A stretch of 64,000 nucleotides of DNA, from sequence record MW882907; one strand, 5' to 3'. Made by a program: the position numbers and the translations under genes. Position 1 is the stretch's first letter. Every line of letters begins with the position of its first letter. The notes under the pieces were generated by a model. That model ran no database searches and was not told the origin of the DNA. It worked only from the letters and a program-made list of their open reading frames with translations. This DNA is from Escherichia phage vB_EcoM_SQ17. Below, one piece after another: positions 2,341-41,866 of this stretch.

Positions 2341-3303
2341 TTATTTCCAAGTCAGTTCGCAGGTCAGTTGAAGAAGCATATACATAACATGTAATTCAAT
2401 ATTACTTGCTAATCCATGAAACTTATTGTTTTCGCCTGCAATTTCGTAAAGCGAAATAATACTTTTACCAGGTGCAACTTGGTCATAACATTCTGAAACT
2501 AATTTATCGATGAACCATGAATAATCTGCGGCATATTTTGGAGCTAATGCACGAAGTTGTTTGATATCTTTGTTCTTCATTGCTTCGATAACATCAGAGA
2601 CTGTGCCACGGTCATTAGTTACGATAGACAAAATACCCGCATCAAGAACACCTTTAGACGAGTACTGGTCTAATTGACCAATTGTACGACGAAAGTCCGG
2701 GAAGTTCTTTTTAACCAGAGCTGCAACAACTTTCATATCAGCGATTTCGATATTTTCATTCTTACAGATTTCAACCATACGATGAATCATTTTCTTCATC
2801 ATCGAGATTTTATCTTCTTCGGTTGGACGACCGAATTCGATAACTCGGCAACGACTACGTAATGGTTCAATAATTCCATCGATGTTGTTAGCAGTAATAA
2901 CAATAGAGCAGTTACTAGAGAATTCTTCCATAAACGTACGAAGGTGACGTTGTGATTCGGCGAGGCCACTACGGTCAAATTCATCAATAACAATAACTTT
3001 AGGCTTGCCTTCCATTGAGACTGAACGAGCGAATGCAGTTAACGGTCCCCGTACAAAATCAATCTTACAATCAGAACCGTTGACGAACATCATTTCAGCG
3101 TTGATATCATTACATAATGCTTTTGCTACGGTTGTTTTACCTGTACCAGGAGAAGGAGAGTGCAAAATAATATGAGGAAGTTTTCCTTTAGATACTAAAG
3201 ACTTGAATGTTTCATGGTCATACGCAGGCAGAATACATTCGTCAATGGAAGAAGGACGATATTTCTGTTCTAGAATGTGTTCTTTGGAATTGATAGTAAT
3301 CAT
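2341..3303 (-). CDS. 44: clamp loader ATPase subunit gp44
   Basis: 320-aa ORF with Walker [12 protein letters not shown], Walker B VIVIDEFD and sensor motifs typical of RFC-like clamp loaders. Confidence 0.9.
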
Positions 3304-32384: not shown

Positions 32385-32693
32385 TCAATTAGAAAATAAA
32401 TTTATCCAAGTTTTTTCTTTAATCAAAAATGGGTCGGAATTAAACGCCATTAAACTTTGAGTGATTAATCCCTTAAATGGCCCATCAATAAATTCCATTT
32501 TGAAATGCGGAATACTAGTCATCAACCGTGCATTAGGAGCAGTACAAAGAACCTGCTGCCCTGCGAACGGACCTTTAGTCAAACGATATCGTTTAGGTTT
32601 AAAATGGTAAATCTCGTAATTTTCTACAAGAGCCCTTTTATTGCATACTGGGCTGTTATAACAATACTCAAAAACTTCAATAGTGGTCATCAT
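32385..32693 (-). CDS. hypothetical protein
   Basis: Track ORF trimmed to ATG ATG (MMTTIEVFEYCYNSPV...), overlapping upstream stop. Confidence 0.45.
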   Translation of the reverse strand: MMTTIEVFEYCYNSPVCNKRALVENYEIYHFKPKRYRLTKGPFAGQQVLCTAPNARLMTSIPHFKMEFIDGPFKGLITQSLMAFNSDPFLIKEKTWINLFSN

Positions 32694-33229
32694 TGCATTC
32701 CAATCACAAAAAATTGAGGACGAGCAATACCGCCGATGCAATATTTGCTTTTGCAGCAGTACTGTACTGATTTAATATGGACATTGTAAATCTTATCCAT
32801 ATCAGGAGCTTTAATAGGCTCGTCAATTATATACAGAATACGAGAAAGCGTTAATCCACGGAATTTAGAACCTTCATTACCAATAAAACTACGGACAGAA
32901 TCAGTAAATAAACGGAATCGAATATCATCGCTAGAATAACGAGAAAATTCTTTTTTAATGTTGCCAGCAGAAATTTTAGCATAAGCTGAAGTATTAGAAA
33001 GAACAATAACTGTTCCACCATCGTGCAGCCAATTAGCGGCAAAATTAGTTACTGCAGTCGATTTACCCGATTGTCTGCCGCCGTCTAAACGAAGTGTACA
33101 GTACTGCTTGAGTACTTCTTCAAATGGCGGGATATAACCATTCTTACAAATTTCTTCTACTCTAGCATCAGAATGGTGTGTAAAAGCATTCATCAGGGAT
33201 AGATAAGGTCCAGTTAAAAATGTTCTCAT
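32690..33229 (-). CDS. small P-loop NTPase of unknown function
   Basis: 179-aa ORF; Walker A DGGRQSGKST, Walker B ILYIIDEP. Confidence 0.5.
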   Translation of the reverse strand: MRTFLTGPYLSLMNAFTHHSDARVEEICKNGYIPPFEEVLKQYCTLRLDGGRQSGKSTAVTNFAANWLHDGGTVIVLSNTSAYAKISAGNIKKEFSRYSSDDIRFRLFTDSVRSFIGNEGSKFRGLTLSRILYIIDEPIKAPDMDKIYNVHIKSVQYCCKSKYCIGGIARPQFFVIGMQ

Positions 33230-33402
33230 TTAGTTTCTCTTTTAGGTTGGGCCATTCCGCGGCACATGTTAGGTCCTTCGACTCGCTATGTAAACCCATT
33301 ACCGCACTTGGGCTCGACCTTATTACAGGTTGGAAAAGGTACATCACTCAGAGGACTCGACGTTCATAAGGAGAGGTTGCGTTTCCCTTTATTAGGCAAG
33401 AA

Positions 33403-33732
33403 TTATACTCTAGGCTTTTGAGCTTGTTTGGTATTGGATTCCCATGCGGCTTTGGTAATTTTGTTAGCGGCATAACCAAAGGCACTAGATAGAACACCTT
33501 TAGAGTTGAATACGTCCAATCCAATAAGTACACCGGCTGTGTTAAATTTAGGAGCAAAGTACGCATTAGTTTTAGAAAGAGCTTTTTTCAATTCAGGGTC
33601 TTGAACCAAGCCATCAAAAACGCCTTTACTATTTACTTTATATGTTACTTTGGGATTTTTAGCTTCTTCGATAGCAGCTTTCTGTTCCGCAGATAATGTA
33701 ACTTCAGTGATAAACTCTTGATATGTTTTCAT
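33403..33732 (-). CDS. internal protein (capsid-targeted) family member
   Basis: 109-aa ORF starting MKTYQEFITEV, the T4 internal-protein capsid targeting sequence pattern MK(T/M)(Y/F)xEF(I/L)xE. Confidence 0.6.
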   Translation of the reverse strand: MKTYQEFITEVTLSAEQKAAIEEAKNPKVTYKVNSKGVFDGLVQDPELKKALSKTNAYFAPKFNTAGVLIGLDVFNSKGVLSSAFGYAANKITKAAWESNTKQAQKPRV

Positions 33733-33770
33733 ATGTTTCCTTTAAATGTAAATAGGCCTAAGTATCGGCC

Positions 33771-34349
33771 TTAATTACCACGGGCTGCATTAGCAACGGC
33801 ATAAGCGTACTGAACATTAGCGTCTTTAAACGTACCTTTAGAGGTATCTATTTCTGCCTTAAAGCCGCCTTTAGCCATAACATCGGCAAATTCTTTACGG
33901 AAAGCCATTGCATCAAGACCTTTCCATGATGATTTATGCTTGGCAAATTCAAGACCTGCGAAGTTGACAGCTTTAGCCAATTTATTATCAATGACCCATT
34001 TACCGGCTTTAGGCACAAACTTCGGTCCTTTTTGTTTAGAGAACAGTTTTAAATTCCAGCGACGAAGATCACTGTCGGCTTTAACAAAAGCTGCGTCTAA
34101 GTTACTAGCAACAACATCTTCAATATGAGCAAATTTAAGTCCGTCAACTTCAATATTTAGATCGTTACGCCAGCGAAGTCCTTCCCAAGCGAAGGCTTTA
34201 AAATCAGAAGCTTTTGTGGCTAGATATCGTTCAAGTGGAGCAGTTTTAGGGTCAAAGCCGTTTCCGCCACGATAAGTCCACTCGTCCTTATTAATGCCTT
34301 GAGCTTTTCCTGCAAAGGCCTCGGCGATAAATTCTTTATATGTTTTCAT
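33771..34349 (-). CDS. internal protein (capsid-targeted) family member
   Basis: Track ORF trimmed to ATG: MKTYKEFIAEAFAGKAQGINKDEW... 192 aa; CTS-type N-terminus. Confidence 0.6.
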   Translation of the reverse strand: MKTYKEFIAEAFAGKAQGINKDEWTYRGGNGFDPKTAPLERYLATKASDFKAFAWEGLRWRNDLNIEVDGLKFAHIEDVVASNLDAAFVKADSDLRRWNLKLFSKQKGPKFVPKAGKWVIDNKLAKAVNFAGLEFAKHKSSWKGLDAMAFRKEFADVMAKGGFKAEIDTSKGTFKDANVQYAYAVANAARGN

Positions 34350-34412
34350 TTTTGTTTCCTTGTTTGTTTTGATAGAGTAATTATACCATATTAACACTTA
34401 AGCGTAAACAAT

Positions 34413-34673
34413 TTAAGCTTTACCGCCAGAAATAATTCCGAAGTTGTTAAAATCGTATCCAATATCGTCAACATCTACTTTAGGGCTTGCTACAACATAA
34501 GCAATTTCACTACGTTTTGCATAGGTGTTGATTTCTTTACCATCGCCACCTAAGAAAAAATACCCATTACGTTTTAATGAGCCAAAGTCTTCCGCATCAC
34601 CAATGAAAGCTTTAACTTTAAATTTAGGACCTTTGGCATCTGCTTCAATGATAAATTCTTGATACATTTTCAT
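34413..34673 (-). CDS. internal protein (capsid-targeted) family member
   Basis: 86-aa ORF starting MKMYQEFIIEA. Confidence 0.6.
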   Translation of the reverse strand: MKMYQEFIIEADAKGPKFKVKAFIGDAEDFGSLKRNGYFFLGGDGKEINTYAKRSEIAYVVASPKVDVDDIGYDFNNFGIISGGKA

Positions 34674-34679
34674 TTTTCC

Positions 34680-35093
34680 TTAGTAAATTGATTTACCATA
34701 GTATTTGTACCAAGTAGGACGTTGAGCAATTTTTTCGTCTAAACGTGCTTGACTTATCGCAATGGACGCTTCGGACGGGACATAATTATTACGAAATTCG
34801 GCAGGGATGTCGGAAATATCCTGGACAGTCGTGTCCTTGATTTTGAAACCACGTTTCAAACATTCAGCGATTAGCTCGATTTGTCGTAAACGTAAAAATT
34901 CGAGTTTGTCGTAAAAGAATGTTACGTGACCTGTGCCTAAGATAAATGTTGGAGAGATTTTAAAATCCTTTACACGTTTACCGTTTTGAACATGTTTACG
35001 GACTGCACCAAATACGCGTGGTAATTCACGATACTCAGCCATAAGATGTTGGTCGGTCAGTTCAGAAACAAGTGTTAAATTGATACGAGTCAT
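34680..35093 (-). CDS. denV: endonuclease V (pyrimidine dimer DNA glycosylase) DenV
   Basis: ATG at 35093: [34 protein letters not shown]... 137 aa, T4 DenV-like throughout. Confidence 0.9.
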
Positions 35094-35151
35094 AAGTTCC
35101 TCCAAGTAGTTGATGAATGTATAGTATCAAAACCCTTGGAGGAAGTAAACA

Positions 35152-35433
35152 CTATTTTTCTGAAGCGCCTGAAATATATTTTTCAAGACGTTGTTTCATC
35201 AGCGAGCCGTTCTTAGCGATTTCTTCCGGTTTATCACACATACGCAACAAGGCTTCAAGCTTAACGATATCGCTGGTACGTTCAAATTTGCGAGTATCTA
35301 TCTTACTAGCAAGTTCAGAAATACGTGCTAATAGACTTTCGGCTTCAACCAAAGCTGCACCTAGCTTAGTTGCAAAGGTGTCAGTAGCTTCGTTAAGAAT
35401 AGATTCTGATAAAAATTCACTATATGTTTTCAT
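35152..35433 (-). CDS. internal protein (capsid-targeted) family member
   Basis: Track ORF trimmed to ATG: [18 protein letters not shown]...; ATGA overlap with lysozyme stop. Confidence 0.6.
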
Positions 35434-35918
35434 ATATACGCTTTCCAAGTTCCTGTTTTAAATGTTGAGATTACGCGTTTCGCGCGATTAGGTGTCTGAC
35501 GATACCACTTAGATTGGGCTAGATTTACTGCCGCTTCGTCCCAACGTTTCTGTTGAAGCATACGAAGAGAATTAGTAAAACCAGCGACGCCTGCTACACC
35601 CATTTGGAAGACCATATTGACCAATGCACATCGACGAACTGCATCTAAAGAATCATATACCGGTTTAAGTTTAGCATTACCCAAGATTCCGCGAACAGCT
35701 TTATCAACATCTTCATTAAATAACTTTTCAGCCTCATCAAGGGTAATTGTACCGTTGCATTTACGTCCGATCATTCTGTCAAGTTCAGCTTTAGCTACGG
35801 CTAAAGACGGGTTCTTTGTTACTAAATGGCCTATGCCAATCGTCCAAAAGCCTTCAGTGTCTTTGTATAAAGACAGTCTAAGACCTTCGTCATTACGAAG
35901 CATTTCAAATATATTCAT
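35430..35918 (-). CDS. e: lysozyme (endolysin) e
   Basis: ATG at 35918: [32 protein letters not shown]... T4-lysozyme fold with catalytic E11/D20 context. Confidence 0.9.
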
Positions 35919-35952: not shown

Positions 35953-36426
35953 TTATAGGATGGTAGTGAGCACCTTATATAATGATTTGCCCATTACATA
36001 TTCCCATTGAGAAGGTTTAATTAAAGCGAATGCATCAAATTCAGGAATCTGTCGTCCGTCTGGGAACGTATGATAGGAATTACAAACACTGTTTCTGAAT
36101 TGCTCGTGCTCTACAGGGATGGTATATAAGAACAGATGAATATTCTTATTGTCTGAGTAATGATGATCACCTAGGTCTTTCAGGAAGGCAGGGTCATATT
36201 GTGTAAACCCGGTTTCTTCTTCGCATTCACGAATAGCGGCTTCGATAGGAGATTCGCCGGGCTCGACACGACCTTTAGGAATATCCCACCGATGAGCTAA
36301 AGAACCTTTAGGACGAGAACCAGTTACACGCCCCATGAATAATTCTTTATCTTCGGTAAGGAAAATAATACCAGCTGATAGTTCTTTCACTTTATTTTTC
36401 TTACTCATCATCTCAAATTCCTGCAT
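35953..36426 (-). CDS. nudE: Nudix hydrolase NudE
   Basis: 157-aa ORF with Nudix box GRVEPGESPIEAAIRECEEETG. Confidence 0.8.
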   Translation of the reverse strand: MQEFEMMSKKNKVKELSAGIIFLTEDKELFMGRVTGSRPKGSLAHRWDIPKGRVEPGESPIEAAIRECEEETGFTQYDPAFLKDLGDHHYSDNKNIHLFLYTIPVEHEQFRNSVCNSYHTFPDGRQIPEFDAFALIKPSQWEYVMGKSLYKVLTTIL

Positions 36427-41224: not shown

Positions 41225-41533
41225 CTATTTTATTCCGCGTGATGCAATCGTATTCTGCCGTTTAACGCCAGTTTGTTTAAAGTTATGATTGTCGAGTTGA
41301 TCGGTACGAGCAACTCCGAATGATGATTTAATCTTAGCTTTAGATCCTTTAGTTATAGAAATATACATCTCGGGAGCCCCTTTCTTAAAGTCCGAAGCAA
41401 TTACTTCAACACCGTTCTTAGCAAGTGACCTCAGAATTGCTTCCGCATACTCATCATCAAGACCCGCTTGAGTATGAATAACGAATGTCTTTGGCGCAGC
41501 TGCTTCACAGATAAATTCTTTAAATGTTTTCAT
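41225..41533 (-). CDS. internal protein (capsid-targeted) family member
   Basis: 102-aa ORF starting MKTFKEFICEA. Confidence 0.6.
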   Translation of the reverse strand: MKTFKEFICEAAAPKTFVIHTQAGLDDEYAEAILRSLAKNGVEVIASDFKKGAPEMYISITKGSKAKIKSSFGVARTDQLDNHNFKQTGVKRQNTIASRGIK

Positions 41534-41593: not shown

Positions 41594-41866
41594 TCATTTT
41601 AAATAAATTGCGTATTTTTTATAACCCGCTGTCTCATGTCGAAGACCCTTATCATTAGCAAAACGCTCAATGTTGTTAATTTGATTCTGGTCAAGTTCAG
41701 AGATGTCAAACACGAAATAGTTACGTTTGTTACCAACTGTTACATAGTCAGTTAAATCAATACCATATAGGTAATTGATGTTATCAATCATAGTCTTGAC
41801 AGCTTTGCTAATTTTTACTTTTTCATTAAAAGCAGCTTCATTGATAAATTCTTTAAATGTTTTCAT
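41594..41866 (-). CDS. internal protein (capsid-targeted) family member in the ipI position
   Basis: Track ORF trimmed to ATG: MKTFKEFINEAAFNEKVKI...; directly upstream of 57B as ipI is in T4. Confidence 0.6.
   Translation of the reverse strand: MKTFKEFINEAAFNEKVKISKAVKTMIDNINYLYGIDLTDYVTVGNKRNYFVFDISELDQNQINNIERFANDKGLRHETAGYKKYAIYLK

Follow-up and report, generated by a model that had tools for sequence, protein, structure and literature searches.

Candidate internal-protein cassettes around denV in Escherichia phage vB_EcoM_SQ17 and a putative structured RNA at their boundary

The T-even phages carry genes with unrelated bodies that share only an N-terminal capsid targeting sequence (CTS) and whose products, the internal proteins (IPs), are likely injected to counter restriction; published accounts of them go back to 1994, and reports of targets appeared in 2007 and 2025. 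The present analysis concerns four open reading frames (ORFs) of this appearance around denV, at 33,403 to 35,433 of a 64,000-nucleotide stretch of Escherichia phage vB_EcoM_SQ17 (MW882907), the whole of which is called the window below. In our judgement the four are probably IP precursors of a Mosigvirus, held as exchangeable cassettes in the interval from e past denV to vs.8, with products that would be packaged, cleaved, injected and inhibitory. That CTS-tagged defence proteins form a diverse group is a textbook idea (PMC3012670), and a later account credits at least ten ip genes to Repoila et al. 1994 (PMC12373910); since such diverse proteins are already in the literature, the locus is best described as a known system correctly recognised.

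The closest described systems are the three IPs of T4. IPI* inhibits GmrS/GmrD (PMC3012670), in agreement with the original prediction, which was made from the sequence alone and cited IPI* as an injected inhibitor of that system; Ip2 and Ip3 inhibit distinct GmrSD enzymes and give no cross-protection (PMC12373910), and IPIII, which T4 needs to infect ECOR17, still acts in the cytoplasm when the CTS is absent (PMC9391042). For packaging in T4, foreign proteins included, the first 10 residues of IPIII suffice, and all T4-related phages have gp21 and the scaffold genes in their core set (PMC9026906), although in the phage considered here the head genes would be expected beyond the window; according to the summary of Mullaney & Black 1996 given in the same paper, residues 4 and 7 of the CTS set targeting and residues 8 and 10 set processing. 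Farther afield, the Dar proteins of phage P1 are also capsid-packaged, injected anti-restriction proteins that protect the incoming DNA (PMC12810830), but they differ in phage family, packaging signals and sizes, have type I restriction as their target and show no homology to the proteins considered here.

Against this background the ORF at 33771-34349 resembles T4 Ip3 (inhibitor of GmrS1/GmrSD2, a two-gene type IV system from E. coli ECOR17) in CTS, length, basicity and e/denV neighbourhood. It differs in being separated from e by denV, in lying behind a promoter that precedes Ip10 in sister phages, and in belonging to the RB69 group, whose DNA carries arabinosyl-hydroxymethylcytosine (hmC) where that of T4 carries glucosyl-hmC; the activity of this orthologue is predicted. 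The genes of the window resemble those of T4 IPI* (target GmrSD-CT596) and IPII (GmrSD-ECOR21) in their leader, in being small, in their loci and in the way their products are presumed to be delivered: the first ORF, ip109, holds the same place relative to ipIII as IPII does, with an identical ribosome-binding region, and two further ORFs, ip102 and ip90, occupy the place of ipI. Past the leader, the window bodies have no similarity to IPI* or IPII; ip86 is without detectable fold likeness, and ip86 and ip93 are not basic. The wider Ip4-Ip13 set of T-even phages, as outlined in secondary accounts (PMC12373910, PMC9026906), likewise has unrelated bodies behind a conserved CTS that are swapped at fixed loci. 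To it belong ip93 (Ip5 family), ip102 (Ip7 family) and the cassette of sister phages that the window lacks (Ip10), the difference being that the swapping seen here takes place at the e-denV-vs.8 locus of Mosigviruses. The 1994 description is said to have centred on the ipI locus.

The leader and the individual genes

All four ORFs are present where the original prediction had placed them, and all lie on the minus strand, which it had not given. They are ip109 (33403..33732, a CTS-tagged precursor of 109 amino acids beginning MKTYQEFITE), the IPIII orthologue (33771..34349, a 192-amino-acid precursor with a 182-amino-acid predicted mature body, beginning MKTYKEFIAE), ip86 (34413..34673, a CTS-tagged precursor of 86 amino acids beginning MKMYQEFIIE) and ip93 (35152..35433, a 93-amino-acid IP precursor of the Ip5 family). 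Two of the four are prolonged upstream to GTG or TTG in the mechanical ORF list; the ATG starts used here match the annotation of relatives. Tyr4, Phe7, Ile or Leu8 and Glu10 are found in all four, and residues 8-10 (ITE, IAE, IIE and LSE, respectively) read in each case as the (L/I)-x-E prohead-protease site, where cleavage is predicted. Over all six reading frames of the 64 kb the pattern MK[TM][YF].EF[IL].E has exactly six matches, every one an ORF start, as against none in 200 shuffles; its occurrence is non-random. Besides the four ORFs around denV, the matches are ip102 (41225..41533, minus strand) and ip90 (41594..41866, minus strand, directly after 57B), the fifth and sixth CTS-tagged ORFs of the window. 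These lie beside 57B in the T4 ipI position, so that the two loci of the window are both of the T4 ip loci, one near e/denV and the other next to 57B.

As the prediction held, the bodies behind this start are mutually unrelated: in pairwise BLASTP every alignment either covers just the initial ~10-20 residues or lacks significance (E >= 0.008). Its statement that in T4 only ipII and ipIII occupy this neighbourhood is also borne out for the interval from e to denV.

Leaders were also gathered from 33 loci in seven genera by body homology alone, with no use of the motif. In register, they overwhelmingly read MKT[YF]xEF[IL]xE, with positions 3, 5 and 9 varying freely. Thr3 is encoded by all four of its codons, and synonymous variants occur at positions 4, 6, 8 and 10; this synonymous diversity with retention of the amino acids points to selection on the leader peptide rather than to a recent copying of DNA.

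By sequence, the ORF at 33771-34349 is the orthologue of IPIII, being 92.7% identical to the T4 protein over its full length (phrog_5341, E 2e-117); relatives annotate it as internal protein III or internal virion protein, and the mature protein would be basic, with an isoelectric point (pI) of 9.6. It alone of the four has homology to Ip1, Ip2 or Ip3 (namely Ip3); ip109, ip86 and ip93 share the leader only.

The protein encoded by ip93 falls in phrog_3499 ('internal head protein', E 1e-46), corresponds to RB69ORF127c and is 89% identical to a VR20 protein annotated as 'ip5, similar to T6 Ip5'; the family names Ip5 and Ip7 used here are taken from the VR20 annotation. Its body is found in 496 phage records, 238 of them at >90% identity and 258 at <60% (~47% in the listed examples), and those of the latter group that were sampled are at other genome positions in Tequatrovirus-type phages. 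The mature form is near-neutral (pI 6.3). A second protease-type site, L-N-E, lies at residues 13-15 (window 35389-35433 being residues 1-15). It is kept in the Ip5 of VR20 even though Glu10 is there replaced (E10V), and because of this retention cleavage in the Ip5 family may fall after residue 15, which would make the leader 15 residues long.

The ip86 product belongs to phrog_2667 ('internal head protein', E 5e-20) and to the family of RB69ORF125c and VR20_119, is named 'internal head protein' in the RefSeq entry for phiC120, and is also near-neutral in its mature form (pI 6.4). Of the 217 phage records in which its body turned up, some hold it twice and others only as a C-terminal remnant; some phages retain just the last 23 codons. 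For ip109, which equals RB69ORF123c, the family is phrog_3966 ('unknown function'), and every annotated record examined calls it 'hypothetical protein'. Its mature body is basic (pI 9.7, 14% lysine); 90 phage records contain it, and Dhakavirus WG01 has a relative, leader included, at 36% identity. Neither ip109 nor ip86 carries an Ip number in any record examined. Taken by composition, the mature bodies of ip109 and the IPIII orthologue (13-14% lysine) fit the description of a small, basic, lysine-rich protein, and those of ip86 and ip93 (11-12% lysine) do not, on account of their pI values.

At the second locus, ip102 is 48% identical to the ip7 of VR20 and stands in the context 57B/57A/gene 1, and the body of ip90 is unrelated to every other CTS-tagged body. 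Neither of these two ORFs, to which the search was limited, is a homologue of IPI.

The original prediction took each body as a new candidate for an injected anti-defence effector. This fits the literature in kind, but the bodies themselves are not new: one is IPIII, another is a member of the Ip5 family, and PHROG families named as internal head or virion proteins take in three of the four ORFs. The closest relatives of the window, which is 96.6-98.6% identical to Mosigviruses (RB69-like T-even phages), are S143_2, phi25-307, phiC120 and Av-05; 824 phage records matched, and 62 of these contain 80% or more of the query at a single site. The RefSeq genome of phiC120 has the identical gene order, with three of the four ORFs already called 'internal head protein' or 'internal virion protein' and the 109-amino-acid ORF 'hypothetical protein'. 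The three non-IPIII bodies (ip109, ip86 and ip93), too, already occur in 90, 217 and 496 phage records, respectively.

A profile and structure search of the bodies, which the prediction had proposed as a check, was run and gave no mechanistic clue. Scans of the IP bodies against Pfam and NCBIfam found no families, and a sequence search of the PDB gave nothing below E 0.1. A word-indexed search of a collection of 5.8 billion protein clusters returned 2, 5 and 11 clusters for the three uncharacterised families, all close relatives and several with T-even phage names, and a full HMMER scan of the ip109 body against 1.84 billion representatives returned its own two 50%-identity clusters and spurious matches, which were set aside as repetitive giant proteins with heterogeneous Pfam content. 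On the searches run, the three uncharacterised families are confined to T-even-like phages. The AlphaFold2 model of ip109 (predicted local distance difference test score, pLDDT, 43) was unusable, and that of ip86 (pLDDT 69) gave no informative fold match. A literature search on the RB69 ORF names found nothing.

Cassette exchange in the e-denV-vs.8 interval

The CTS-tagged ORFs of the 33 loci cluster into 13 unrelated body families that appear in varied combinations, and six of the 13 are present in the window. The window and phiC120 have the order Ip5, denV, ip86, IPIII, ip109; S143_2 has in addition Ip10 between ip86 and IPIII, and phi25-307 adds Ip10 and IPII. In PNJ-6, IPIII is replaced by IPII, and RB69 is without IPIII. 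VR20 has Ip5, denV, Ip10, ip86 and Ip7, Dhakavirus WG01 has a 132-amino-acid IP, IPIII, denV, the ip109 relative and an 85-amino-acid IP, and T4 has IPIII, IPII and denV. The e-denV-vs.8 interval is combinatorial across genera, and this, together with one cassette junction inside the tag-coding sequence, is the new detail that the locus contributes.

That junction lies before the IPIII orthologue. A T4-early-type promoter-like site (34380..34408, minus strand; TTTACG-17-TATAAT with TG) stands upstream of IPIII, and in S143_2 (2640-3060) this promoter, with its leader, stands before the Ip10 cassette, one that is missing from the window. The IPIII of the window (34330-34412) has this promoter and leader, and the switch from Ip10-like to IPIII-like sequence falls inside the shared 30-nucleotide segment that encodes the tag. 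Because the switch point is so placed, the arrangement fits a recombination event between tag-coding repeats in which a cassette was either lost or acquired.

A second T4-early-type site (35121..35150, minus strand; GTTTAC ... TACTAT) lies upstream of denV and ip86. Sites of this type (GTTTAC ... TAnnAT) are found before denV, IPIII and both 57B-adjacent genes, and likewise before denV, ipI, ipII and ipIII of T4. As the ribosome-binding region of ip109 is identical to that of T4 ipII, so ip102 has an upstream leader identical to the one before T4 ipI. Upstream of the ip genes, neither the window nor T4 has the T4 late-promoter consensus TATAAATA.

The RB69 locus (AY303349) holds three damaged-looking alleles (1450-1779, 1848-2120 and 2923-3204): an Ip5 homologue whose leader is frame-shifted (MKTYMNFYQN...), an ip109 homologue with E10A in the predicted cleavage site and a truncated Ip10 homologue. 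The damage could represent laboratory decay or sequencing error.

Around the array, transcription on the minus strand runs nudE-e-ip93-denV-ip86-IPIII-ip109, then through a 173-nucleotide non-coding stretch to vs.8. The lysozyme gene e is at 35430-35918, nudE at 35953-36426 and the vs.8-like gene at 32690-33229, each of them on the minus strand. Within the array lies denV (34680..35093, minus strand), which is itself no internal protein; it encodes endonuclease V, a pyrimidine-dimer glycosylase (Pfam Pyr_excise PF03013, E 3e-14; phrog_1183; so annotated in relatives). The start of ip93 overlaps the stop of e by 4 nucleotides, and ip86 starts 6 nucleotides past the stop of denV. ARAGORN found no tRNA genes in the window (1-64000); T4 has eight between e and ipI, and RB69 has two past the e gene series (e.1-e.8).

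Proposed route and rival explanations

For the four proteins around denV we propose a route drawn from the shared leader and from what is known of T4. The ~10-residue N-terminal CTS would bind the prohead scaffolding core, by which the protein would be built into the head. The prohead protease gp21 would then cut after Glu10 of (I/L)-x-E or, for the Ip5-family protein, perhaps after Glu15, and the mature body of 8-20 kDa would stay with the packaged DNA and be co-injected. In the cytoplasm each body would block one specific host nuclease that could otherwise cut DNA with sugar-modified hmC, the likeliest targets being members of the very diverse GmrSD family of type IV restriction enzymes. Repertoires would come to differ between phages through the recombinational gain and loss of cassettes, with at least one junction inside the 30 nucleotides that encode the tag.

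The IPIII orthologue would most likely act as T4 Ip3 does, and it probably inhibits a GmrS1/GmrSD2-type system, given the T4 IPIII data and the finding that the arabinosyl-hmC DNA of RB69, the type Mosigvirus, is still cut by GmrSD (PMC6024577). For ip109, ip86 and ip93, our best guess is the same class of target as for the T4 IPs; an arabinosyl-hmC-specific nuclease or a non-restriction first-response system could be targeted instead. Injected internal proteins are the first phage products to meet host immunity, and their repertoire helps to set host range and is relevant when T-even phages are chosen or engineered for therapy. Of the many CTS-tagged families, targets are known for only three; to these the locus adds three compact and widely shared candidates, extending the catalogue and leaving the concept unchanged.

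Several points weigh against this proposal. When Silas et al. (PMC12373910) tried ip4-10 of T4-like phages against GmrSD variants, they saw no inhibition that could be reproduced, and for this reason GmrSD is not assured as the target class. The mature ip86 and ip93 proteins are near-neutral, as opposed to the basic IPs of T4, and fold and profile searches brought out no likeness to IPI* or to any known inhibitor. No virion proteomics of a Mosigvirus was found in the literature searched, and incorporation, processing and injection are predictions. Natural alleles with a damaged tag exist, among them RB69ORF127c (leader frame-shifted), RB69ORF123c (E10A) and the Ip5 of VR20 (E10V). Lastly, the databases contain many ip86 alleles with truncations, internal deletions or frameshifts (P0010, P0011 and P0015-P0017; PhAPEC2, JS09), which suggests that this cassette is frequently lost, and individual cassettes may on that evidence be dispensable or decaying.

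Such alleles, and the placing of cassette junctions in tag-coding DNA, are what would be seen if the common N-terminus were a by-product of recombination, the 5' gene end and ribosome-binding region having been copied along with the promoters, with some of the ORFs unpackaged and some in decay. We think this very improbable: synonymous diversity is coupled to amino-acid conservation exactly at the residues for targeting and cleavage, leaving positions 3, 5 and 9 free, the bodies of the three non-IPIII ORFs are 95-100% conserved across dozens of phages, and the 10-residue CTS by itself packages foreign proteins in T4 (PMC9026906). That the proteins are packaged, but mainly as structural components, their lysines serving as counter-ions that aid the condensation or ejection of DNA with no specific host target, is a less extreme view and still an unlikely one. 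It agrees with the basic character that mature ip109 and IPIII (pI 9.7 and 9.6; 13-14% lysine) have in common with the T4 IPs and with solid-state nuclear magnetic resonance of T4 heads, where lysines of the internal proteins touch DNA phosphates (PMC3012670). The net charge of ip86 and ip93 is zero, however; a counter-ion role leaves unexplained both the 13 unrelated folds and the variation in presence and absence among close relatives, and all three T4 IPs, the basic ones included, have specific GmrSD targets.

More serious, though we would still not expect it, is the possibility that the three uncharacterised bodies are injected and act beyond GmrSD, on other first-response defences or in host takeover in the manner of the packaged ADP-ribosyltransferase Alt. 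The failure of ip4-10 extends across eight active GmrSD systems, the charge of ip86 and ip93 is unlike that of Ip1-3, and the uncharacterised bodies are without homology to Ip1-3; by charge, ip86 and ip93 are the best candidates for a target other than GmrSD. On the other side, every IP with a known target (three of three) inhibits GmrSD, a family so extremely diverse that only a small part of it has been tested so far, and the bodies, at 76-99 amino acids, are too small and show no Pfam or NCBIfam enzyme signature.

A structured RNA candidate next to vs.8

The less expected item of the locus is a conserved structured-RNA candidate at 33248..33393 (minus strand), which lies in the 173-nucleotide gap between the ip109 stop and the vs.8 start and forms the 3' boundary of the array; it is supported by covariation, has no Rfam family and is annotated in T4 as coding sequence. 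Nucleotide-level conservation of the gap extends over 1069 phage records, the fetched loci of seven genera carry it, and a core of ~35 nucleotides, CCUGUAAUAAGGUCGAGCCCAAGUGCGGUAAUGGG, is near-invariant in all seven T4-like genera sampled. Compensatory changes are seen in pairing P1 (AAAGG/CCUUU, GGGAA/UUCCC, GGGAG/CUCCC and AAAGC/GCUUU) and in pairing P2 (CC-A-ACC/GGU-AA-U-GG, CC-U-ACC/GGU-AA-A-GG and GG-U-ACC/GGU-AA-A-G-CC), double changes being found at all five P1 pairs and at two P2 pairs. They appear in an anchor-based table that is independent of the structure model and in pair counts, with the caveat that fitting to the model had shaped the second alignment; 96.6-97.6% of the cells are paired, as against at most 44% when the partners are slid. 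The fold of the single sequence is not unusually stable (z +1.6), so that the case for the RNA rests on covariation. Searches against Rfam families and for tRNAs gave no match, and none of 185,579 genomes of bacteria and archaea contains the exact core; the sequence was not found in the literature searched, but it might be one of the candidates left unnamed in large screens for phage RNAs (for example PMC10690425), to which the search did not extend.

In the T4 record (NC_000866), vs.8 (219 amino acids) starts 40 codons upstream of the conserved Met and so runs through the RNA element (L003 2819-2942). A reading of the 173-nucleotide gap as the N-terminus of vs.8 was rejected in view of the non-conserved frame, the start of phrog_1488 at the downstream Met and the compensatory base-pair changes. 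The profile of the family, phrog_1488, has 177 positions and begins at the inner Met; since it does so and the frame is not conserved in the window, the N-terminal extension of the T4 protein looks like an annotation artefact.

Most simply, the RNA would be a cis-acting leader of vs.8 that also marks the boundary at which ip cassettes insert; a functional tie to the ip genes is unproven. We hold it possible, on balance doubtful, that one or more of the uncharacterised bodies block a defence outside the characterised GmrSD systems and, as a separate matter, that the boundary RNA (33248-33393) is a new class of RNA, controlling vs.8 or marking the insertion site of ip cassettes. If true, a body that blocks another defence would found a new family of injected anti-defence proteins.

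A covariance model finds one full copy of the RNA per fetched locus, normally just upstream of vs.8, which encodes a small P-loop protein. In some phages inserted ip genes are flanked by further copies, whole or partial. Second copies stand in tandem in two Karamvirus-like contigs, and Salmonella phage STP4-a has another copy beyond IPIII. Partial copies lie between IPII and ip109 in phi25-307 and, in a Jiaodavirus contig whose full copy is followed by an ip gene, ~360 nucleotides downstream of that full copy.

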